Source: a virus (taxonomy: Duplodnaviria; Caudoviricetes). Taken from it: DNA of 64,000 nt. The notes beneath the pieces are model-generated. The model did no database searches. It was not told the origin of the DNA and was given only the letters and a program-made list of their open reading frames with translations. The stretch covers positions 1 through 64,000 of IMG/VR virus record IMGVR_UViG_3300031998_000058. One strand, written 5' to 3'. Position numbers and translations under genes: made by a program. The first letter of the stretch is position 1. The number at the start of each line of letters is the position of its first letter. Positions 28,186 through 56,329 of the stretch are shown here, piece after piece.

Positions 28186-28534
28186 TTATCTGTCGCCCAC
28201 AATTGCCACATCTGAACACGGCATGATAAATCTATACATTCGTGTGCTACCCGGATACACAGAGGAGCCGGTAGTACTTGGAACGGTCTGGTTGCCAATA
28301 TAAGCTTTATCAGATACCAAAGGTGGTGAAGACAAGTATCCCGAAGTATAAACAATCACGTAATCCCCGACCTGAACATTAATCGGTAAATCACTTGCCG
28401 TATATTCTTCTGTAGTGTTATCAGGGTTAGTGACTATTATTGTTGTTATTAAGGCGAGTGCCTCAGAATTAGCACTCAACTCAAAGCTACTCGTACCCCC
28501 CCCCTAAAATTGTGGTTGAAGCATTAAAAATCAT
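28186..28534 (-). pseudogene. MIFN-leader fibre accessory gene frameshifted at a G9 tract (OFF; G8 gives 115 aa)
   Basis: AGGAGG RBS, ATG 28534, MIFNASTTIL-GGG-YE* stop at 28487; removing one G reads GGGTSSFELSANSEAL into ORF 28186-28479. Confidence 0.85.
28496..28504 (-). repeat. poly-G tract (G9)
   Basis: 9 C on + strand. Confidence 0.95.
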
Positions 28535-28603
28535 ATTGTTCCTCCTAACTGATTACTTAAAAATATTATCGTTGTTATAATGTATTGGCGTTAACATTAT
28601 TAA

Positions 28604-28996
28604 TTATTCTGAGCTTTCACGCTGTAAAATAAGTAAAACATCTGTAAGTCCCTGTTCAAAGGATATATCTATTGAAGAACCGTAAAAAACTGACTGTATG
28701 ACTGAAAAAGTTACTTGATACTCTTGTTCGTCGAAATCATCACCTTCCATTCTTAGAGGCACACTATACGTATCCTCCGCGTAGCTTGTTGCGATACCTA
28801 CATCGTTATAAAGTTCACCATTCAGGTATCCAATTCCATAAACCCACATAGGTTTATCTGTTAAAATCGTAACGCCCGGCAATTCCACAAATTTACCAGA
28901 ATAATCCTCTGATGTGAAATGTAAGACAACTAAATTAGGGCTGTCTATACCCCCCCCTTTTTTTTGAGTCACAGTTGTAGTCATATTGAATATCAT
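28604..28996 (-). CDS. MIFN-leader fibre accessory protein, in frame through an A8G8 tract
   Basis: MIFNMTTTVTQKKGGG; CAA AAA AAA GGG GGG GGT at ~28950-28966. Confidence 0.75.
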   Translation of the reverse strand: MIFNMTTTVTQKKGGGIDSPNLVVLHFTSEDYSGKFVELPGVTILTDKPMWVYGIGYLNGELYNDVGIATSYAEDTYSVPLRMEGDDFDEQEYQVTFSVIQSVFYGSSIDISFEQGLTDVLLILQRESSE

Positions 28997-29009
28997 ATAT
29001 GCCTCCTTA

Positions 29010-29297
29010 TCAATCCCTGCTCCATGTCACTGTTATATCCGAACTTGGCATTTCGTAAAAATCATAAAAGATCATATCATAGAGCGATTTAATCGGATTT
29101 AATGTGTCACCTCCGGCAGTAACAGTCGCAGTTCCACGTGCATAAGTGACTACAATGATAGTACCGGCCTCCTCTTGAGTTAACGTCGTTTCGAAATCTC
29201 TGATGGAAAGAATTCCTACTGACCCAGATTTTGCTATGTTGTAGAGCGTCCCTCCGCCCCCGCCGCTATTAGTCTCGCTCAAATTAAAAATTGCCAT
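29010..29297 (-). CDS. MAIFN-leader fibre accessory protein with InlB B-repeat-like domain
   Basis: SGGGGGT linker in mixed codons; C-terminal YEMPSSDITVTW. Confidence 0.7.
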   Translation of the reverse strand: MAIFNLSETNSGGGGGTLYNIAKSGSVGILSIRDFETTLTQEEAGTIIVVTYARGTATVTAGGDTLNPIKSLYDMIFYDFYEMPSSDITVTWSRD

Positions 29298-29358
29298 AGT
29301 TACCTCCTAAGAACCTGCCACGGTGTTACCCGTAGCAGGAAATAATCGTTTTGTGTTG

Positions 29359-29603
29359 TTAACTTTTTCCTGCGCTTACAAATACATCATAATCTGGCAT
29401 TGTAAACGTCCATGTGTCCCCAGTAGCGAGTGTTCCGCTGGATGCTATTGTTTGACTGGATGAATTTGTTACCCAAGCAGAACAGTTCCTTATTGCAGTG
29501 ACTGTTACTATTTCCCCAGCTACTGCACTTTGTTTATCCAACGCAACATAGCCTGTATTATTATTTGTAATGCTATGAGGGACTAGCTGCTCAGCCCCCC
29601 CCC
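29359..29603 (-). other. out-of-frame C-terminal extension (InlB B-repeat-like) of the 474-aa fibre protein
   Basis: no own RBS/ATG; joins upstream CDS if G9 becomes G8; TFTMPDYDVFVSA motif. Confidence 0.75.
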
Positions 29604-31015
29604 TCAATAATCATCACATTGACAGCTACAGCAGCCGTGGGAGTTGTTGAGCAGTTAAAGGTAAGCGAATTAGCCGCCTGTGCCGAGCAGTAAACATCCG
29701 CTGCCGTGTATACATCCTTGCTTGCCGGAGCGTATGTAACGATGATTCCTGAGTTCGCAGTAACGCCTGAAACGGTCTTCGTACAAGAGCCGTTAGACCA
29801 GTCAGAAGTGGCGATATTTACAGTAGCATAGGTAATGGAAACACCACCGGACGCTGCCGCCGCTGCCCATGCTCCGCTGACTACTGTAAGCACCTTGTCA
29901 TTGTCGGACGATGTTACTGACGGAAGTGCCGGGATTGATATATTTCCGCTTCCAAGTAAGCTGGTGCTGTTGATAGTCTTAATATTTGTTCCGCTTACCA
30001 GTGTGTCCTGCTTGTCCTCTACCATCTCAAGCAGAGACTTTTCTGCCGTCCAATGTGCCTCTGTCCATGACTCTGCCGTGGTAATAGCCGTATTGCACTT
30101 ATAGATGCCATAACTGTATCTTACTCTGTCTCCAACAGCGTATGTCTCAGATGAAGAGTAAGCAGGAATATTCGTAATCAAAGTTCCAGCTATCGAGTTC
30201 ATTGCTTTCGGTGTTAAAGCTAACGCCTCACTGGTACTGGTTGCCGATGAACTCAGCTTCGTCAGGCCGTAATAAGTAGTCGTAGCAGTTCCTTTTGCAC
30301 TCATGACAAAATTCGTGCCGTCATACACAAAGTCAATTACTTCACCTGATACCCAGTAATATCTGTCAGTAGTTGTAGTTCCTACTCTGGCGATGTTAGA
30401 TGCGCCTGTTCCATCTACGTTCAGAGTGGCGGTGCCATTATATGAGTTACCGCTGGTCATCTTTATACGAACCATTGCGCCGGTGGTCTTGACAAAATCG
30501 CCATTGGTCGTGGTTGCTACTTTAGCCGCTGTACCGGCACTGGTAGCACAAGTTGCGTAATATGTCTTATATGATCCAGGTGACTGACAGATATATCTGT
30601 AGTAAGTCCCATCATACATAAAGTAGACGACATTGTTTGCCGCCCACTTACAGAAGTTGGTCGCGCTTGCTACAGCGGAACCAACATAGATTGCCGCCGC
30701 ACCTGTGGAGTTGATGTTCAATGTAGGCGCGGCTGCCGTGTTTGCTGTTGAGAATAATACGCCGATGATCGCTCCCTTTTCTTTGGCGTATCCCGAACAG
30801 GTCACGGCTTTTGCCGCTGTCGATGCCGTTGTGGAGCAGGTTCCGTACCATGTGGTCGTACCGCCAACGGATATGTCCCCTGATCCCAACAGGCTTGTAT
30901 TATTAATGGTCTTGATATTTGTGCCGCTGGTCAGAATCGGCTGATAGGTTGCATCAGCTTTATCTTTGATGTCGCCGACCAAATATTCAACACCTGTGTT
31001 GTCTATGTATGCCAT
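29591..31015 (-). CDS. tail fibre/whisker-like protein with fibre repeat and CBM5/12-like module
   Basis: ATTTYYGLTKLSSSATSTSEALALTPKA fibre repeat; YSSSETYAVGDRVRY..IYKC..W module; duplicated SGTNIKTIN.TSLLGSG. Confidence 0.75.
   Translation of the reverse strand: MAYIDNTGVEYLVGDIKDKADATYQPILTSGTNIKTINNTSLLGSGDISVGGTTTWYGTCSTTASTAAKAVTCSGYAKEKGAIIGVLFSTANTAAAPTLNINSTGAAAIYVGSAVASATNFCKWAANNVVYFMYDGTYYRYICQSPGSYKTYYATCATSAGTAAKVATTTNGDFVKTTGAMVRIKMTSGNSYNGTATLNVDGTGASNIARVGTTTTDRYYWVSGEVIDFVYDGTNFVMSAKGTATTTYYGLTKLSSSATSTSEALALTPKAMNSIAGTLITNIPAYSSSETYAVGDRVRYSYGIYKCNTAITTAESWTEAHWTAEKSLLEMVEDKQDTLVSGTNIKTINSTSLLGSGNISIPALPSVTSSDNDKVLTVVSGAWAAAAASGGVSITYATVNIATSDWSNGSCTKTVSGVTANSGIIVTYAPASKDVYTAADVYCSAQAANSLTFNCSTTPTAAVAVNVMIIEGGG
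29595..29603 (-). repeat. poly-G tract (G9)
   Basis: GAG GGG GGG GGC TGA at the end of the CDS. Confidence 0.95.
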
Positions 31016-31071
31016 TGCATTCCTCCTTTGTTAGAAATGTTTAATTGGCGTGTTGGTTGTATAATGTTGTT

Positions 31072-31354
31072 TTATCTAGGGTCGCTATCAGTAATAGTAA
31101 TATTGCTTTCTGGCATTTCAAAATAATATATCCTCTGGTAATCCTGAGGAGCCATAAATCCTGTGTCTACAAATGTCACCTCTGGAACAGATGTAATATC
31201 TCCACTCATATCTGCACATATATACACGGTATCACCGGCATAGGCCTCAGTGATTATATCGCTTACTTGCCCTCTATCGCCTGGTCTTGATCCGGGCGTA
31301 AAACTCGCATAAGCCGTAGTTCCACTAATCGAGTAGGCTGTCACTGCCCCCCCC
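31072..31354 (-). other. out-of-frame C-terminal extension (InlB B-repeat-like) of the 164-aa fibre protein
   Basis: joins upstream CDS if G8 becomes G9; YYFEMPESNITIT motif. Confidence 0.75.
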
Positions 31355-31835
31355 ACGCAGAATTGACTGCTGTCGCAATCTCCTGTTCTGTCATGGCGGT
31401 CATGCTGGTTCCTACACTCCCGACATACTGATAATGACTCCCGTCATAAACAAACTCATGCGCTCCGGCTGCCAGAACCTCCGCACTGATTGCCGAAGAG
31501 CCACGGTATACCGCCACTGCGCCAGTGGAATTGACGTTCAGGGTGGGTGAAGCCGCCGTGTTGCCATTACTGAACGTAATGATAATAGACTTGCCTGAAG
31601 CCAGCGTGAATCCAGAACAAGTCACAGTTTTGGCAGCCGTCCCTGCTGCCGTAGTACATGTACCATAATCGGGGCCTCCGCTTGCCGCTGAGATTACCCC
31701 GTTGTTGTCAACATTAATCGTAGTGCCGTCCGGCTGAACCACGCCCAAGCTGGACGTGGTTGCCGGTACAACACGACTATCTTTCAAATCATATGATTGA
31801 TTGTTTGGGAGGACGATTGCTTTGATATTCGCCAT
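31341..31835 (-). CDS. fibre/collar-type protein
   Basis: ATTSSLGVVQPDGTTINVD; YGTCTTAAGTAAKTVTCSG domain shared with 29591-31015. Confidence 0.7.
   Translation of the reverse strand: MANIKAIVLPNNQSYDLKDSRVVPATTSSLGVVQPDGTTINVDNNGVISAASGGPDYGTCTTAAGTAAKTVTCSGFTLASGKSIIITFSNGNTAASPTLNVNSTGAVAVYRGSSAISAEVLAAGAHEFVYDGSHYQYVGSVGTSMTAMTEQEIATAVNSAWGGQ
31347..31354 (-). repeat. poly-G tract (G8)
   Basis: TGG GGG GGG CAG TGA at the end of the CDS. Confidence 0.95.
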
Positions 31836-31873
31836 GATTCCCTCCTAATATAGTCTGTGTGATGTGTAGTAAA

Positions 31874-33250
31874 TTATTCGCTATCGGGTGTAACCGTGAT
31901 CTTAGCCGCAGAGCCGGAGAAGGTTGCCGCAGACGGTACAGTAATGTTGCCGGTTTCCAGTCTGACCGCAGAACCAGAGAAGGAAGCAGCAGAAGGAACA
32001 GCAATAGCTCCAGTTTCGAGACGTACACCAGTGCCGCTGAAGGAAGCGGAAGCCGGTACGCTGATGTTTCCGGTGACAAGCCTTGCGCCAGTACCAGAGA
32101 AGGAAGCTGCGGACGGAACACTGATGTTGCCAGTCTCAAGCCTTACAGCAGAACCTGAGAAGGAACCAGCTGTCGGAAGGTCGAACGCAGCATTCGCCAG
32201 GGTCATGTAATCGCCAGCGAACTCGTAAGCAGCATCGCCAGTCTTAACAGTGACATCAGTTGCAGTGATGGAATCGCCAGTGGTGAATCCAAGCTGATAG
32301 AACGTAAGGACTTCATCAGCTACATTGTAGTAGGTGATGGCATTGTCCGGAGCAGAAGCAGTCGGAGCCGCCGCTACTACGCTCTTGGCTACAGTGACAG
32401 CAGACGGATTGTGGATCGTGGATGTAGCGCCTGCGCTTGCAGTGGAAATAGTACCTGCGCACTGGAAGGTGTGAGCCGCAGATGTGCCAGCCGAAGCAGT
32501 GATGGCCGGAGCTGTGCTGGAAGTCGTGAAGGATACAGTACCAGCAGGTGTGTAAGTAGCATCTCCAGAATCAGCTACAGAGACAGCAGCCTTTCTGCCT
32601 TCTTCTGTCAGAGTTATGGAGCCAGCAGGTGTGTAGGTCGCATCTCCTGAAGAAGCAGCCGATACGGTCGCAGTCCTTGCTTCCTCTGTCAGAGTGATCG
32701 AACCTGCGGGAGTGTAGGTCGCTGCACCAGAAGCTGCGGGGCTGACCGCTGCACTTCTGTTTTCCTCGGTAAGAGTGATGGAACCAGCCGGTGTATAAGT
32801 AGCTTCACCGGTAGCTGCCTGACTGACCGCTACAGTCTCAGTGCCATTGGTAAGAGTAATCGTACCGGCAGGAGTGTAGTTCGCAGATGCAGTATCGACA
32901 TAAGCCATGTCGCCAAGATCAGACAGGTCGATAGCTGTGGTTCCTAATTTCTCCCAGGAGTAGTTGTTGCCAACTTTTACAGTGATGTACTCATCATATA
33001 CGTTGTTCTCACGATCCTCGCCGGGAACAAGATAGATGGTGTACATTGTGGCGGACGAAGCTACCAGAGTACCAGTGATGGTCGTAGCGCCGTCTTTCCA
33101 TGTAACATCTTTCGGGGTCGTGGCAGCATCGGTACTGATAAGGTACTCAAACGAGTTTAAGCTCTCTATAGCTGACCGTGCGACTTCATCCTTGATGTCA
33201 TAGGTTACGCCATTAGGCATCGTAATTTGTTTGATTGTGGGATTAGCCAT
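31874..33250 (-). CDS. Ala/Ser/Thr-rich repetitive virion fibre/decoration protein
   Basis: start MANPTIK (AAAGGAG RBS); five 27-aa YTPAGSITLT repeats and ~five 20-aa SFSGxxxRLETGNISVP repeats. Confidence 0.7.
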   Translation of the reverse strand: MANPTIKQITMPNGVTYDIKDEVARSAIESLNSFEYLISTDAATTPKDVTWKDGATTITGTLVASSATMYTIYLVPGEDRENNVYDEYITVKVGNNYSWEKLGTTAIDLSDLGDMAYVDTASANYTPAGTITLTNGTETVAVSQAATGEATYTPAGSITLTEENRSAAVSPAASGAATYTPAGSITLTEEARTATVSAASSGDATYTPAGSITLTEEGRKAAVSVADSGDATYTPAGTVSFTTSSTAPAITASAGTSAAHTFQCAGTISTASAGATSTIHNPSAVTVAKSVVAAAPTASAPDNAITYYNVADEVLTFYQLGFTTGDSITATDVTVKTGDAAYEFAGDYMTLANAAFDLPTAGSFSGSAVRLETGNISVPSAASFSGTGARLVTGNISVPASASFSGTGVRLETGAIAVPSAASFSGSAVRLETGNITVPSAATFSGSAAKITVTPDSE

Positions 33251-33271
33251 TGTTAACAGTTCTCCTTTCAA

Positions 33272-33784
33272 TTAAAGATTGTTTTGAAATATTAGTGTTT
33301 CCGATTCGCATGAAACGGCGAGTCGCTCATTCCAGATTGCTTTTTCTTCAGGTGTAACGTGGATTGACATATCGTTGATATGAATGCCCAATCTCTCTTC
33401 CACCAGCTCGATAGCTTCCGCCATGGATACCTTGACTACATCTGTTCCTGTCCACGATCCTGTATGGTTGTTCTTGAACCGATACAAATCGTCTTCATAG
33501 ATTACGTAGTCCCCCGCCTTATACGACAAGGTGCTATCGAACTCAGGCGCAATCATGTCCTGCGTTTTTGCTAACTCTTCTACGATTTCCCCTGTGGATG
33601 ATGCCTTCATCCAGCAATCTTCGTCCCATGGACCGGTTGTGGATTTGGTGCATATATAAAGCTCATCGTCATAGATGCAGTATTCACCAGGCTTATAGCT
33701 TTTGCTCGGATCATAGTCTTCCGCCGATGGTGAGCCGCCCCCGCCAGACAAGGCTTTTATTAAGATATAATCTGTTACTTTCAT
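33272..33784 (-). CDS. protein with two CBM5/12-like modules
   Basis: YDPSKSYKPGEYCIYDDELY..W and FDSTLSYKAGDYVIYEDDLY..W. Confidence 0.65.
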   Translation of the reverse strand: MKVTDYILIKALSGGGGSPSAEDYDPSKSYKPGEYCIYDDELYICTKSTTGPWDEDCWMKASSTGEIVEELAKTQDMIAPEFDSTLSYKAGDYVIYEDDLYRFKNNHTGSWTGTDVVKVSMAEAIELVEERLGIHINDMSIHVTPEEKAIWNERLAVSCESETLIFQNNL

Positions 33785-33808
33785 CTATAGTCTCCTTCGC
33801 AGTGGCGC

Positions 33809-33976
33809 TTATCCGAGTTCGAGCCATCGTTCGTTCTCTTCATCCCAAGCAAAAATCTTTTGGGTATCCATTTCGACAAATGTGCTACCGTTTCTTATAT
33901 TTCCTGTAGGCTTATCATCCGTGCTGAGTCCTACAAACTCATCTGTTAAATGTCCATCTTCTGTGACCATGACCAT
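33809..33976 (-). CDS. small phage structural-region protein (55 aa)
   Basis: GAAAGGAG RBS; GLSTDDKPT..NGSTFVEMDT..W motif. Confidence 0.7.
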   Translation of the reverse strand: MVMVTEDGHLTDEFVGLSTDDKPTGNIRNGSTFVEMDTQKIFAWDEENERWLELG

Positions 33977-33999
33977 GCTCCTTTCTGAAAACTTGTTGT

Positions 34000-35322
34000 T
34001 TAGATTCCTTCTAACCAAAGCGTATGAGATACGCTGTGTTCTCCATATGATGCTGTTATCGTTAATGGCGTTACGCTTCCACCCCAGCATGTCACGGCCG
34101 CTTGATTGGGATATTCGGCAATCGTATATGCTTCTTCATCCGCACCATTTGCTGTCCATGTGATTGCCTGTTCTGTTGCCCGTCCTTCTTCGTAGTAATA
34201 AGCCTCAAATGTGATTGAGCTGCCATACGGCAAACGTCCCGGATAACTATTCAGAAACGCTACATGAGGATCCGCATCAATTCCTTCTACATTAACAGTG
34301 AAATTAATGTTCCGGTCGGGATTCTGATCCAGTATGACTCTGATCGTTGCGATTCCTTCGCCTACCGCAGTCACATTCCCTTCCGCGTCAACAGTCAGAA
34401 CGCTTTCATCGCTGCTCTCCCACGAATAACTTACCGGGTGTTCTTCCGTTGAAGAAACTTCCTCCGTCTCGCCCAGGTAGCTTCTGGTACTGCGTGCCAT
34501 AAACTGTTCTGTATCTCCCACTGTCAAAGTACTGCTGCCAAGGACATTTATGTCCCAAGCAAATGTCTTGCCTCCGGCCACGCGGTTGACCATATCATCC
34601 GTGTTGTCGTTTGGCTCGTCGTATCTAAGTGCAAATTCCATCAATCCGACGGAATCGTCTTCAAAAGTGAATTCAGCCTGAAAGTCCGAAAAGCCTGTAA
34701 GCATATATGCCGATGAGCCGAGAATGATCCTGCTGTTATGGAACAGTTGTTTTGTCGCTGCATTGGATTGGATCGCTGCAGGGAAATATCCTTTCGTGAT
34801 CATGGTTGATCTCTGTGAATCCGGAGTGCTGGCCCTCATCATGTCAAGGTTCACGGCCAACGGTTCCCTGCAAAGATTTCCGTAATAGTCCAGGTAATTC
34901 CAAGTGGTATCGCATCTTCTGACAACAGCTGTCCCGCCATCCCCCATGTTTCTCGGGTCATCTACCAGCCAAACGCTTCCCAGCGCAATAATCTTTGCCC
35001 CTTTCCGCAGATACTCATATTGACGTTCTGCTATTAGGATCCGTTTATGATCATCGGCTGTAGATGTAAGCGTTGCGTTACTTACGATATCCGTGAACCG
35101 CAGATGAACTTTCGTATATTCAAACGGTTCTTCCGGGTTTAATCCCTGGACTTCTGCCTCAACGTAATTGCTGGAGTATTTTGCTTTTTCCTGTATGAAT
35201 GTTCTTGTCTCCGGGGCGTTATATTCCTTTTGCTTACCGCTGTATTGTTTTGGACGATAGCTCCTATAAGAAAGAGAGGCGCTGTTTATTATTCTTGTTT
35301 TAGCAAGTTCATCTTTGAGCAC
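34000..35322 (-). CDS. head-closure/neck protein fused to Ig-like (Big_2) domain
   Basis: position after adaptor; SWESSDESVLTVDAEGNVTAVGEGIATI Ig motif. Confidence 0.6.
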   Translation of the reverse strand: MLKDELAKTRIINSASLSYRSYRPKQYSGKQKEYNAPETRTFIQEKAKYSSNYVEAEVQGLNPEEPFEYTKVHLRFTDIVSNATLTSTADDHKRILIAERQYEYLRKGAKIIALGSVWLVDDPRNMGDGGTAVVRRCDTTWNYLDYYGNLCREPLAVNLDMMRASTPDSQRSTMITKGYFPAAIQSNAATKQLFHNSRIILGSSAYMLTGFSDFQAEFTFEDDSVGLMEFALRYDEPNDNTDDMVNRVAGGKTFAWDINVLGSSTLTVGDTEQFMARSTRSYLGETEEVSSTEEHPVSYSWESSDESVLTVDAEGNVTAVGEGIATIRVILDQNPDRNINFTVNVEGIDADPHVAFLNSYPGRLPYGSSITFEAYYYEEGRATEQAITWTANGADEEAYTIAEYPNQAAVTCWGGSVTPLTITASYGEHSVSHTLWLEGI

Positions 35323-35344
35323 AGCTATCCCCTCCTTCCACTTC

Positions 35345-36049
35345 TTATATCAACGTCTTTGCACTTGTTTTAAGAGTTACTGGCATGATCCGGTTGTATG
35401 CAACATCCTGTTCGTATTTTCGCAGTTCAGCATTGAACGTCTGGATCTTTGTCTGAACCTTGTCGCTCAACTTGGCCGTATAAGTAGACTCGTTAACAGT
35501 GCTATAGTTCGAGTCGTGAATCTTCGGCGTCTGATTGAGCCAGTTATTATCGAACCGGTCGTACCATACAAGCGTTACAGCTTGTCCGAACAGCCTGAGC
35601 ATTGACAGGGTAAGGTCCGCAAACGATCCATCCGTATAAACGAATATCTCGTATTGCGCACCAACCTGTGTCTGGACCGTGAACGTGATGTCTCCCGTCT
35701 CTGCATCGTATGAAAAGTCTTCGTATGGAATTGCATACGTACCATCTTCCGAACGCAAGACGACCGAGCACAGCTCATATCCAATAAGCCCTGTGTGTAC
35801 TACGGTCTCCTCGGTGAGGCTCTCGTCTGTTGCGGTCCATTCCGCCGAATCGAATTTGGCTTCTATGTAATTACTGTTGATATAATCAAACAGCTCAGGC
35901 GGACGATTGAGTAATGGCATGGCAGCAGAAACATAAGCGCTCATCGTTCTGTAAAACGCAGCCGGATTTACGTTTAGTTCTTCGGTCAGCCGAATATCAT
36001 CGATGTATATCATGGCTTGGCTGATTACTTCTGATACTGTCGTTGCCAT
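35345..36049 (-). CDS. putative head-tail adaptor
   Basis: positional; helical N- and C-termini. Confidence 0.5.
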   Translation of the reverse strand: MATTVSEVISQAMIYIDDIRLTEELNVNPAAFYRTMSAYVSAAMPLLNRPPELFDYINSNYIEAKFDSAEWTATDESLTEETVVHTGLIGYELCSVVLRSEDGTYAIPYEDFSYDAETGDITFTVQTQVGAQYEIFVYTDGSFADLTLSMLRLFGQAVTLVWYDRFDNNWLNQTPKIHDSNYSTVNESTYTAKLSDKVQTKIQTFNAELRKYEQDVAYNRIMPVTLKTSAKTLI

Positions 36050-36069
36050 TTTGTTACTCCTGTTCTTGA

Positions 36070-37050
36070 TTAAAAGCCGATCAGCTTCTTAAAGGTCGTC
36101 GGGCCACAAACACCATCCACGGCAATTTTCTTTTTCTTCTGGAACGCACGAACCGACGCTTCCGTAGCACGACCGTATGACTGGTCGCACACGCCCTGGT
36201 AATAACCATCAGCACTCAGCAGTTCCTGTGCCAGATATACGTAGATGTTCTTATCTCCAGCCTGTACCTGATGCACGACCTTCGGATTTCCTGCTATGCC
36301 AAGGATGTTCGTCCATGTAGCGGAATCGCATTCACCAGTGACCTTCAGTTTTCCGCCATGGTCTTTGATATACTGCTGATACTTTATGACTGCCTTGATC
36401 GTGAGGTCTCCGTAGCTTCCGTCAATCTTCTTCTGCGGATACATACCTCTGCTGCATAGCAGTCTCTGTAACAGCTTGACCTTCTTCCCCTGGCTTCCAC
36501 CTTTGATCTTCGATACTTTGAAACTGTGCGTATCATCCGGTTCCGGCTCTCCCCATCTGCAAGAGGATGTGTATAAGCAGCAGATATTTCCTGCGAAATC
36601 GCTGAACGGATGCCATCCTGTTCTAACGGTCGATGCCGGATCATACACAAGATACTGGTCTGTGTTTGCATCGTATCCGACAACCGCAATGTAGTGGCCG
36701 CTCGTCGTCCACATGGGACTGACTACGTTATGCATCAGGAGTACACCTTCGCATCCGCTTTTGATCACGTTCTTCCACTGTTCGAATATGGAGCAGTCAT
36801 ACGTACCGTCCATACTGGATCCAAGCATCTTTCCGTCTTTGCCATAAGCGGCAAGCGCAGCATTGATGCCTCCCCAATATGTTCCGTGACCATCCGTAGT
36901 GGCATAGCCATTAGCGGTCATCCAGTCAGCCACCGTAAGTGGAGAGATTTCCAGAAGGTCTGCTACGGAAGTAGGTCCGCATCCTTGAGAAGCAAATGAC
37001 CCTCCACAATATGTAGCGTTGTAGTTATATTGTTTGTAATCACAAGACAT
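36070..37050 (-). CDS. endolysin: C39-like cysteine peptidase plus two PG-binding domains
   Basis: QGCGPTS (Cys), SGHYIAV (His), YDPAS (Asp); two DGxYG.xT.xAV.xFQ PG_binding_1 motifs; next to holin. Confidence 0.85.
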   Translation of the reverse strand: MSCDYKQYNYNATYCGGSFASQGCGPTSVADLLEISPLTVADWMTANGYATTDGHGTYWGGINAALAAYGKDGKMLGSSMDGTYDCSIFEQWKNVIKSGCEGVLLMHNVVSPMWTTSGHYIAVVGYDANTDQYLVYDPASTVRTGWHPFSDFAGNICCLYTSSCRWGEPEPDDTHSFKVSKIKGGSQGKKVKLLQRLLCSRGMYPQKKIDGSYGDLTIKAVIKYQQYIKDHGGKLKVTGECDSATWTNILGIAGNPKVVHQVQAGDKNIYVYLAQELLSADGYYQGVCDQSYGRATEASVRAFQKKKKIAVDGVCGPTTFKKLIGF

Positions 37051-55841: not shown

Positions 55842-56329
55842 TTAATGAATCACAATAAAGTCATGTGTTAACAGTCCGTTACTGATCACAACACAATTCT
55901 GCCTCGGTCGGTTCAGCTCTTCTCCTGTACCCCCCCTAAAATGAAGTGTATGCGCTTTCTGAACATCATGAGCTGTGTTATATAATCAAACGGTATTCCA
56001 TCATTCAGCCATAATAACGGCATTATCAATGCATACTTCATTCCAAGAGCGTCCAGGCGTTTCACTACGTCTTTCTTCCGGCTGAATGGAGGGTTAGAAA
56101 TAACAGCCTGCGCTCCTTTGGGCGGTTCCGTTTCAAAGAAATCAGTGTCGGTACAGATACACCGGTGACCATGTTCCGTAAGGATCCGGTCAAATGCGCC
56201 TCCCTTATCGTTGAACGGAAGCCATACTGTCATCGGACGTTTAATATGCTGCGCGATAGTTTCTGCATCTTTGTCACGCGTAAAATACTCATCTCCTCTT
56301 ATACTTTCCAGATCCGTAATTCCACCCAT
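55842..56329 (-). CDS. N6-adenine DNA methyltransferase-like protein, truncated at a G7 tract (138 aa as assembled; 162 aa with G8)
   Basis: DEYFT, WLPF, DFF, ISNPPFS motifs; adding one G reads GGGTGEELNRPRQNCVVISNGLLTHDFIVIH* to 55842. Confidence 0.75.
55930..55936 (-). repeat. poly-G tract (G7)
   Basis: 7 C on + strand. Confidence 0.95.

Follow-up and report, generated by a model that had tools for sequence, protein, structure and literature searches.

Poly-G tracts at the module joints of a phage fibre cluster as probable slippage switches of distal fibre modules

Fibre genes and G runs at the locus

The stretch of DNA analysed here, the window, comprises 64,000 nucleotides (nt), positions 1 to 64,000 of the IMG/VR virus record IMGVR_UViG_3300031998_000058 (Duplodnaviria; Caudoviricetes), a record of 72,320 bases that is an estimated 93% complete. 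Its fibre cluster contains four runs of eight or nine G at module joints, all within 3 kb, and no other G run of at least eight is present in the entire record; the positions and lengths of the four runs are as an initial annotation, made from the letters alone, had given them. The genes of the cluster all lie on the minus strand, and the tracts are therefore seen as C runs on the plus strand. In ascending order they are a G9 run (28496-28504, C9 on the plus strand) within MIFN1, the first of three small genes; an A8G8 run (28950-28965; on the plus strand C8 at 28950-28957, directly followed by T8 at 28958-28965) within the second, MIFN2; a G9 run (29595-29603, C9 on the plus strand) at the end of the gene for a fibre protein of 474 amino acids (aa), here joint 1; and a G8 run (31347-31354, C8 on the plus strand) at the end of the gene for a 164-aa fibre protein, here joint 2. 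Each of them encodes a Gly-Gly(-Gly) linker at a module boundary. Three break the reading frame ahead of intact bodies, which remain open for 81, 94, and 105 codons and retain the family ending motif F-x-M-P-x-x-D; by our own uniform-codon estimate, accidental openness has a probability of about 1-2% per out-of-frame body.

This four-tract pattern is real and non-random. Chance is discounted not only by the lack of any further run of this size but also by the length spectrum of the C runs in the window, which is bimodal (20 runs of C5, none of C6, one of C7, two of C8, and two of C9), and by the shuffled sequences: the G8 pattern is matched six times in the window against 0.79 expected, a count reached in none of 100 dinucleotide-preserving shuffles. 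Moreover, GGG is the rarest glycine codon of the window genes (14%), and codon usage confirms that the other glycine linkers of the window are written in mixed codons, with G5 at most.

The 474-aa fibre protein (29591..31015, minus strand), in its short form, ends in ...VNVMIIEGGG, directly followed by the stop. It passes the Pfam threshold for PF03406 (Phage_fiber_2; 31.2 bits against a cut-off of 22), contains a sub-threshold CBM_5_12-like stretch (PF02839; 21.1 bits against 26.2), and belongs to a mosaic set of 3,559 homologues; many relatives end naturally at ‘NVMII-x-stop’. As translation of the two frames bears out, one G fewer at 29595 would continue the protein as ...IIEGG-AEQLVPH... 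into a 551-aa fibre, by way of an open reading frame (ORF) for a 78-aa module (29359..29594, minus strand) that is InlB-B-repeat-like, has a weak Pfam match to Flg_new_2 (E = 0.0047), and ends ...TFTMPDYDVFVSAGKS. This module has no start codon after the run, the only candidate being a TTG at 29607 that lies ahead of it.

At joint 2, the short form of the 164-aa fibre protein (31341..31835, minus strand, from the ORF list) ends in ...AVNSAWGGQ before its stop, the DNA reading TGG GGG GGG CAG TGA. A ninth G would give ...AWGG-AVTAY... and a protein of 254 aa, a consequence for the frame that stands as first described. The module that would be appended (31072..31346, minus strand) is again InlB-B-repeat-like, if divergent, and ends ...YYFEMPESNITITDSDPR. 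The initial annotation held that neither appended ORF has an RBS or ATG of its own; at 29595 no start follows the run, but the ORF at 31347 does have a start, a GTG (31344-31342) that, two bases past the G8 run, overlaps the TGA stop of the 164-aa fibre (GTGA). Public gene calls list this module as a 90-aa gene. Because the module ORF has its own overlapping GTG, the short state at 31347 may still yield the module as a separate protein, and may then be better described as ‘free module’ than as ‘no module’. The ‘TLNVNSTGA...FVYDGT’ module of the 164-aa fibre is common to hundreds of fibre proteins; among its homologues none has a fused long form and none a closely related C-terminus. A module homologous to that of joint 2 is found fused in frame in the protein P0009.

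The three MIFN genes lie directly beyond the 474-aa fibre. MIFN1 (28186..28534, minus strand) is split: a ribosome-binding site (RBS, GGAGG) and an ATG, which we place at 28534-28532, are followed by the leader MIFNASTTIL, the G9 run, and a stop after 15 aa. Its body occupies 105 open codons in the frame that G8 would restore, giving the 115 aa previously proposed, with the junction ILGGGTSSF. MIFN2 (28604..28996, minus strand; 130 aa), which is in frame as had been noted, consists of the leader MIFNMTTTVTQKK, a GGG linker supplied by the A8G8 run, and a module. MIFN3 (29010..29297, minus strand; 95 aa) begins with the leader MAIFN..., which a mixed-codon GGGGG linker joins to a module with the C-terminus ...YEMPSSDITVTWSRD; an identical protein is encoded in four other contigs. 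PHROGs and Pfam gave no family match for any of the three proteins, and an ESM Atlas search with MIFN2 was uninformative. We considered and rejected the idea that the MIFN leader is a copy of the last strand of the fibre (...NVMIF[DE]GG), the likeness extending over 3-4 residues only, with no DNA identity. Also set aside was translational coupling from the leader ORF, given that homologues with mixed-codon linkers are single ORFs; at most, such coupling may make an off state leaky. The stop of the leader does, in certain off frames, overlap a start codon in frame with the body: GTGA in the related contig L026 and in L074/L078, and TTGA in the window for a hypothetical G10 run. We estimate that such an overlap arises by accident in roughly 30% of cases. 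Just after the MIFN1 run, a hairpin (GAGUGCU...GGCACUC, 28440-28490, minus strand; z = -1.95 for the 92-nt fold containing it) encloses the TTG at 28479 together with the stop of the G10 frame, and might affect re-initiation.

The fibre joint in other assemblies and related phages

Exact-sequence look-ups of two window proteins recovered other assemblies of the same phage. One of these, L129, a 2,197-base contig from the JGI metagenome 3300028914, aligns to positions 28528-30725 of the window and matches it at 2,197 of 2,198 positions, with no mismatch and a single gap; the gap lies in the 29595 run, which is G8 in L129 and G9 in the window. A 24-kb contig of the ENA assembly ERZ27257204 lists genes of 458, 164, 90, 551, 95, and 130 aa. 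The 551-aa product (P0359) equals the short fibre through ...VNVMIIEGG and then continues with AEQLVPHS... to ...SAGKS, with the joint-1 module forming its C-terminus; its junction, IEGGAEQL, is exactly that predicted for the long form. Two Logan assemblies differ at this gene: SRR9008936 encodes the 474-aa fibre, whereas SRR9008937 leaves just 62 nt between the end of the fibre ORF and MIFN3, a gene spacing that corresponds to the long form. The tract itself was read as G9 in the window and as G8 in L129, and the remaining assemblies were judged by protein products and gene spacing. Both alleles, encoding the 474-aa and the 551-aa fibre, exist naturally in otherwise identical DNA.

A wider comparison covered 56 loci from IMG/VR and 24 genome loci sharing the last domain of the 474-aa fibre. 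The IMG/VR loci were obtained with an alignment of that domain, a single-protein query with the whole fibre having retrieved no close relative from IMG/VR; INPHARED phages had no DNA match to the cluster. A degenerate pattern for the fibre-end joint matched a single, unrelated locus in IMG/VR (L087), and a scan for MIIN-type leaders followed by G8 gave mostly unrelated matches, the only two that appear relevant, L123 and L126, being in frame with G13 and G8, respectively. Metagenomes scanned with the sequences on either side of the 28496 and 31347 tracts yielded no further contig. The named genome loci are mostly metagenome-assembled genomes (MAGs) labelled Oscillospiraceae, Clostridia, or Clostridiales, other labels also being present. 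In the layout common to these relatives, the fibre ends in ...NV[ML]I[IV]-x-stop and is followed by an RBS and by one to several small genes, which start with MI[FIY]N and continue, after 5-10 residues, into a glycine run and a variable module. These glycine runs are mostly in mixed codons, as in L007. Modules fused in frame within uninterrupted ORFs are found in P0002, P0008, P0009, P0115, and the fibre of L026, the last having a module similar to that of joint 1 behind mixed glycine codons. Because long, fused fibres thus occur as plain ORFs, the short and long architectures can both be regarded as natural.

Poly-G versions of the same joints occur in both states. In the closest relative, L082 (85% aa identity in the last fibre domain), the joint reads ...ATGATTATTGAG-G8-CAGTAGCC in frame and is fused to a different module; as the DNA similarity between L082 and the window stops exactly at the run, the run appears to be a point of module exchange as well. 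L082 also has a G7 run in the short state at another fibre end, and a gene of the MIFN type that reads in frame through TCT-G8-TACGAC, at a site comparable to the MIFN1 tract. In L085, a G7 run is followed by a fused module. L086 repeats the design of the window at 31347 (‘G7-CAGTAG’): its G7 run is in the short state, ending ...SGGQ-stop, and one more G would give ...SGGAVVPEH.... The small genes present the same picture. Of the MIFN-type G8 runs in L086, one is on and one off, while two such genes in L026 carry a G9 run that is on and a G8 run that is off; the anatomy of the MIFN1 off state recurs in both contigs (L026, 5226-5233; L086, 5084-5091). In five related contigs, one and the same gene (MIFNTTTPAGNAGG...) has G8 and is on (one contig), has G9 and is off (two), or has G10 and is off (two). 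Two of the contigs with this gene, L078 and L080, differ over 4,242 nt only in the run, which is G10 in the former and G9 in the latter, and in the whole records of these phages runs of G8 or more occur only in the fibre cluster. The comparison of tract lengths among related genomes, which had been put forward as a check on slippage, therefore favours a switch, with G8 and G9 at 29595 and G7 to G10, in both states, among the relatives. At every joint, in the window and in the relatives alike, the short-form frame meets a stop 0-3 codons past the run, a placement that speaks for selection of the short form rather than for chance.

Several further repeats were seen in these relatives. L083 and L084 are two samples encoding an identical fibre (P0021). 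L083 (1140-1150, read in detail) is in the short state and has the interrupted run GGAGGGGG at the joint that in L085 combines a G7 run with a fused module. An A breaks this run in L083/L084; the run exceeds that of L085 by one base and leaves the module out of frame, and it may represent a ‘locked’ short allele. A coding-strand C8, encoding a Thr-Pro-Pro linker, stands in frame at the equivalent fibre-end joint of L078 (6876-6883) and also in L072, L080, and L081. Just downstream of the poly-G MIFN-type gene, a tiny ORF (MSFIRVKCLRERER...) contains a (GA)n repeat whose copy number varies among related phages (n = 14 in L072, 1289-1316; n = 22 in L074, 8546-8589; n = 14 in L078, 7919-7946; n = 8 in L081, 3794-3809), and its stop overlaps an ATG (ATGA) in L072 and L078. 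Intergenic runs of G8 to G11 lie 1-4 bases upstream of an ATG in L026 (4517-4524), L076 (3521-3531), and L053 (6893-6900 and 7439-7447).

Runs of 8-10 G are prone to error, and L129 is a short contig, so the differences in length have to be weighed against errors of sequencing or assembly, in which case all of these genes would really be in frame or fixed and the polymorphism would be noise. We regard this as very unlikely. The same two discrete states at 29595 recur across pipelines, G9 in IMG/VR and Logan and G8 in JGI, ENA, and Logan. The rest of the genome consists of long, intact ORFs, and the T7 runs inside genes are in frame. In the relatives, the coding-strand C8 is invariant in the four contigs in which the nearby run varies from G8 to G10. 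Finally, the consistent placement of stops just past the runs points to selection on the short frame.

Appended modules, proposed slippage, and competing accounts

Eight of the modules (four from the window, three from L026, and one from L008) were aligned. They share a small all-beta pattern and the ending motif F-x-M-P-x-x-D-V-T, and a profile built from them retrieves 2,673 proteins, headed by giant multi-repeat surface proteins. Three multi-repeat matches that were checked (P0229, P0238, and P0308) contain PF18998, with E-values from 4.6e-70 to 6.9e-33, and two short matches checked gave no Pfam match. Single modules miss the Pfam gathering score, only one of the eight matching PF18998 (Flg_new_2) at 17.3 bits against a cut-off of 23.6. 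An AlphaFold model of the joint-2 module is all-beta with seven strands (predicted local distance difference test score, pLDDT, 79), and a Foldseek search of the PDB with this model returned nothing below E = 1. On the strength of the profile and the shared motif, the modules are assigned as divergent, distant relatives of the InlB B-repeat (Flg_new_2), and they are probably binding modules.

We consider it probable that the four G runs serve as contingency loci, with slippage in replication switching the distal modules of the fibres. Under this proposal, a run would gain or lose a G through slipped-strand DNA replication. At the fibre ends (29595 and 31347), such a change would toggle between a short fibre, with a stop 1-2 codons past the run, and a long fibre with a covalently attached InlB-B-repeat-like, adhesin-type domain of about 80-90 aa. 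In the MIFN tracts (28496 and 28950), where the run stands between a conserved N-terminal leader and a variable module, it would act as an on/off switch for the entire protein. Virions with differing distal fibre modules would then coexist in a phage population, a form of bet-hedging against variation of the host surface. The initial annotation had read the tracts as on/off and short/long switches. For the 29595 tract this reading is now supported directly, and for the other tracts by family-wide analogy, those three not having been seen to vary in this phage. We would expect them to vary too, and the switching to be frequent and reversible. The modules presumably bind host surface structures, with an effect on adsorption or receptor binding, and states might be mixed on virions to give combinatorial variants. 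The ‘off’ states may be leaky, because the runs could let ribosomes slip or could act in a Shine-Dalgarno-like manner.

Several observations weigh against this proposal. In every comparable assembly, the three tracts other than 29595 have the same length as in the window: joint 2 has the 164 + 90 aa state, with an identical 164-aa protein, in the window, ENA ERZ27257204, and Logan SRR9008936; MIFN2 is 130 aa in the window, L129, and the ENA and Logan assemblies; and the 642-nt spacing across MIFN1 is unchanged. The protein database contains neither a 254-aa nor a 115-aa form. Two JGI/Logan pairs are possibly the same samples assembled twice, which would leave 2-4 independent samples. As for the modules, their best VIA-align matches are weak and are to generic immunoglobulin (Ig)-like adhesin domains (Z from 5.3 to 4.5). 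At 31347, the GTG overlaps the TGA, the G run is placed like an RBS, and gene callers call the 90-aa gene; in the relatives, the intergenic G runs apparently serve as plain ribosome-binding sites, as judged from their position.

The last two points suit a different account, in which the short states are ordinary gene boundaries, the run being no more than a C-terminal glycine stretch and a Shine-Dalgarno-like site, the module a separate product made by coupling, and the G8/G9 difference a rare allele that is neutral or mildly deleterious. Other joints have a layout of this kind: in L008, G7 is followed by TAG, CA, and ATG; in L086, a GTG in the module frame uses the G of the TAG; and G runs stand as plain RBS in L026 (G8-TGTG-ATG), L053, and L076. 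Coupling cannot explain the 29595 joint, however, because there is no start after the run, and yet 81 codons are open and appear fused in P0359. Nor does it suit the small genes, where the frame breaks would inactivate the MIFN proteins because the leaders are part of single ORFs in mixed-codon homologues such as L007. The same joint, moreover, occurs fused and unfused in near relatives. Overall, we judge ordinary gene boundaries to be an unlikely explanation of the set of tracts.

Short and C-terminally extended products can also arise from a single genotype. In T7 (gene 10A/10B) and lambda (G/GT), a virion protein is extended at its C-terminus by a programmed -1 frameshift, and the window resembles these systems in having a short and an extended product encoded in frames that overlap close to where a structural gene ends. 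By extension, slippage of the ribosome or of RNA polymerase at the runs could make a fixed ratio of short to long products, the changes in the DNA being incidental. A run of at least seven G would let tRNA-Gly re-pair in any frame, and four of five short-state joints (31347 in the window, L008, L082:1059, and L086) would need the equivalent of a -1 shift, with the stop right after the run. In T7 and lambda, however, the ratio is fixed in one genotype and depends on a heptamer and an RNA structure, whereas here the DNA itself differs in length between samples, the long form in those samples is a plain ORF, and pseudoknot-free folding of the 92 nt after each of the two joints gave no structure beyond that of shuffled controls (z = -0.6 and +0.15). 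The direction of the required change is also inconsistent: one G more at 31347, one G fewer at 29595 and 28496, and either in the MIFN genes of relatives. Furthermore, recoding ten codons into a gene would waste most of its translation. A single programmed frameshift fits poorly because the change is in the DNA and its direction differs between tracts, and we hold recoding to be quite improbable compared with slippage during replication.

The gene order around the cluster, from high to low coordinates, runs from genes of the terminase/portal/capsid region through a lysin (36070-37050; Peptidase_C39_2 + PG_binding_1), which lies on one side of the cluster, and an Ig-domain protein to the fibre cluster, a block with a GT2 glycosyltransferase, and the tail genes. 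In the same direction, the cluster itself comprises a 170-aa CBM_5_12 protein with a mixed-codon GGGG linker and a 465-aa repeat-rich, fibre-like protein (together 31874..33784, minus strand), the 164-aa fibre, the 474-aa fibre, and the three MIFN/MAIFN genes. Beyond these lie the GT2 glycosyltransferase gene, a small DUF7365-like coiled-coil gene, leucine-rich repeat (LRR) genes, and tail genes, including one for a 2,088-aa tape measure. The cluster (28186-37050 region) thus stands between the capsid region with the lysin and the GT2/LRR block, well upstream of the tape-measure gene, a gene order that does not separate tail from head fibres.

Outside the cluster, the sole G7 run of the window (55930-55936) lies near the 3' end of a minus-strand gene (55913-56329) for a 138-aa protein that contains an ISNPPF motif and is DNA-methyltransferase-like (phrog_799, E = 1.3e-15). 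The family match stops at the run; G8 would add 23 aa; and the flanks, ATTTTA-G(n)-TAC, are common to this tract and that of MIFN1. It may be a fifth slippage site. In two other IMG/VR contigs, a phage gene beginning MIFNADCMELM... is broken after 20 aa by a G9 run in L068 and is intact (214 aa) with G8 in L070. Its assignment as a putative DNA methylase is taken from a motif alone. Poly-G has been reported in the methylase gene of BPP-1, to which the L068/L070 gene would be a parallel.

Relation to known phage switches

The nearest precedent is provided by the receptor-binding genes of Campylobacter Fletcherviruses, in which polyG tracts 7-11 nt long are described as hypermutable (Sorensen et al. 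2021, Cell Rep 35:109214, as cited in PMC10579305 and bioRxiv 10.1101/2025.10.21.683753). In both systems, several G runs occur in fibre or host-recognition genes and a change in length shifts the frame, in the window most clearly at the 29595 tract of the Phage_fiber_2 fibre; in Fletcherviruses, such changes create subpopulations with different sets of fibres. The window differs in phage lineage and in likely host, its fibre homologues being found in Clostridia and Oscillospiraceae MAGs. It differs also in design: the run encodes the glycine linker where modules meet, two of the tracts would govern the presence of a C-terminal domain and not the expression of a whole gene, and two follow the conserved leader, 10-13 aa long, of small module genes.

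Homopolymer runs in phage genes are likewise the basis of the contingency loci of T2/T4 coliphages, where they mutate by polymerase slippage and the reversible frameshifts serve bet-hedging (Gomez, Barrick & Waters, bioRxiv 10.1101/2025.10.21.683753). Most of those loci lie in non-structural genes and have runs of at least six, and repeats are under-represented in tail-fibre genes in the coliphage survey (bioRxiv 10.1101/2025.10.21.683753), whereas the runs of the window are concentrated in the fibre cluster. Built-in variation of the distal, receptor-binding end of the fibre would be a feature shared with the tropism switches that PMC10579305 cites, namely the invertible tail-fibre segments of Mu/P1 and the diversity-generating retroelement of Bordetella BPP-1. 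Here, in contrast, the switch would be a simple repeat, with neither an invertase nor a reverse transcriptase involved. In the literature, we found no such switch reported for phages whose hosts are Clostridia-type bacteria of the gut or rumen. Relative to the known poly-G switches, the new elements are the run as a glycine-linker joint, the domain add-on as output, the leader-linked module genes, and the phage lineage.

A broader possibility, which we offer tentatively, is that poly-G is a multi-purpose joint in a wide range of phages infecting Gram-positive bacteria of the gut and rumen, acting as glycine linker, module-exchange point, RBS, and slippage switch. Its outputs would be a fused module, a module set free by coupling, or no module, and a row of such joints could yield many combinations of fibre tips.

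Phase variation of host recognition through simple G repeats has been established by experiment in one group of Campylobacter phages. The replication-slippage reading would extend this principle to an unrelated, uncultured phage, apparently of Clostridia-type hosts, with both alleles of one joint caught in nature and the design of the joint recurring in several related phage lineages. In annotation, gene callers will misrepresent such fibres as truncated or split, and that homopolymer ‘errors’ in fibre clusters are worth keeping and not polishing away. The combination of a fibre, a glycine or poly-G joint, and a small, probably binding domain is also a natural modular scaffold for studying the gain and loss of binding domains. 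Frequent switching would also mean that, in the viromes of gut and rumen, a genome sequence does not fix the host range.

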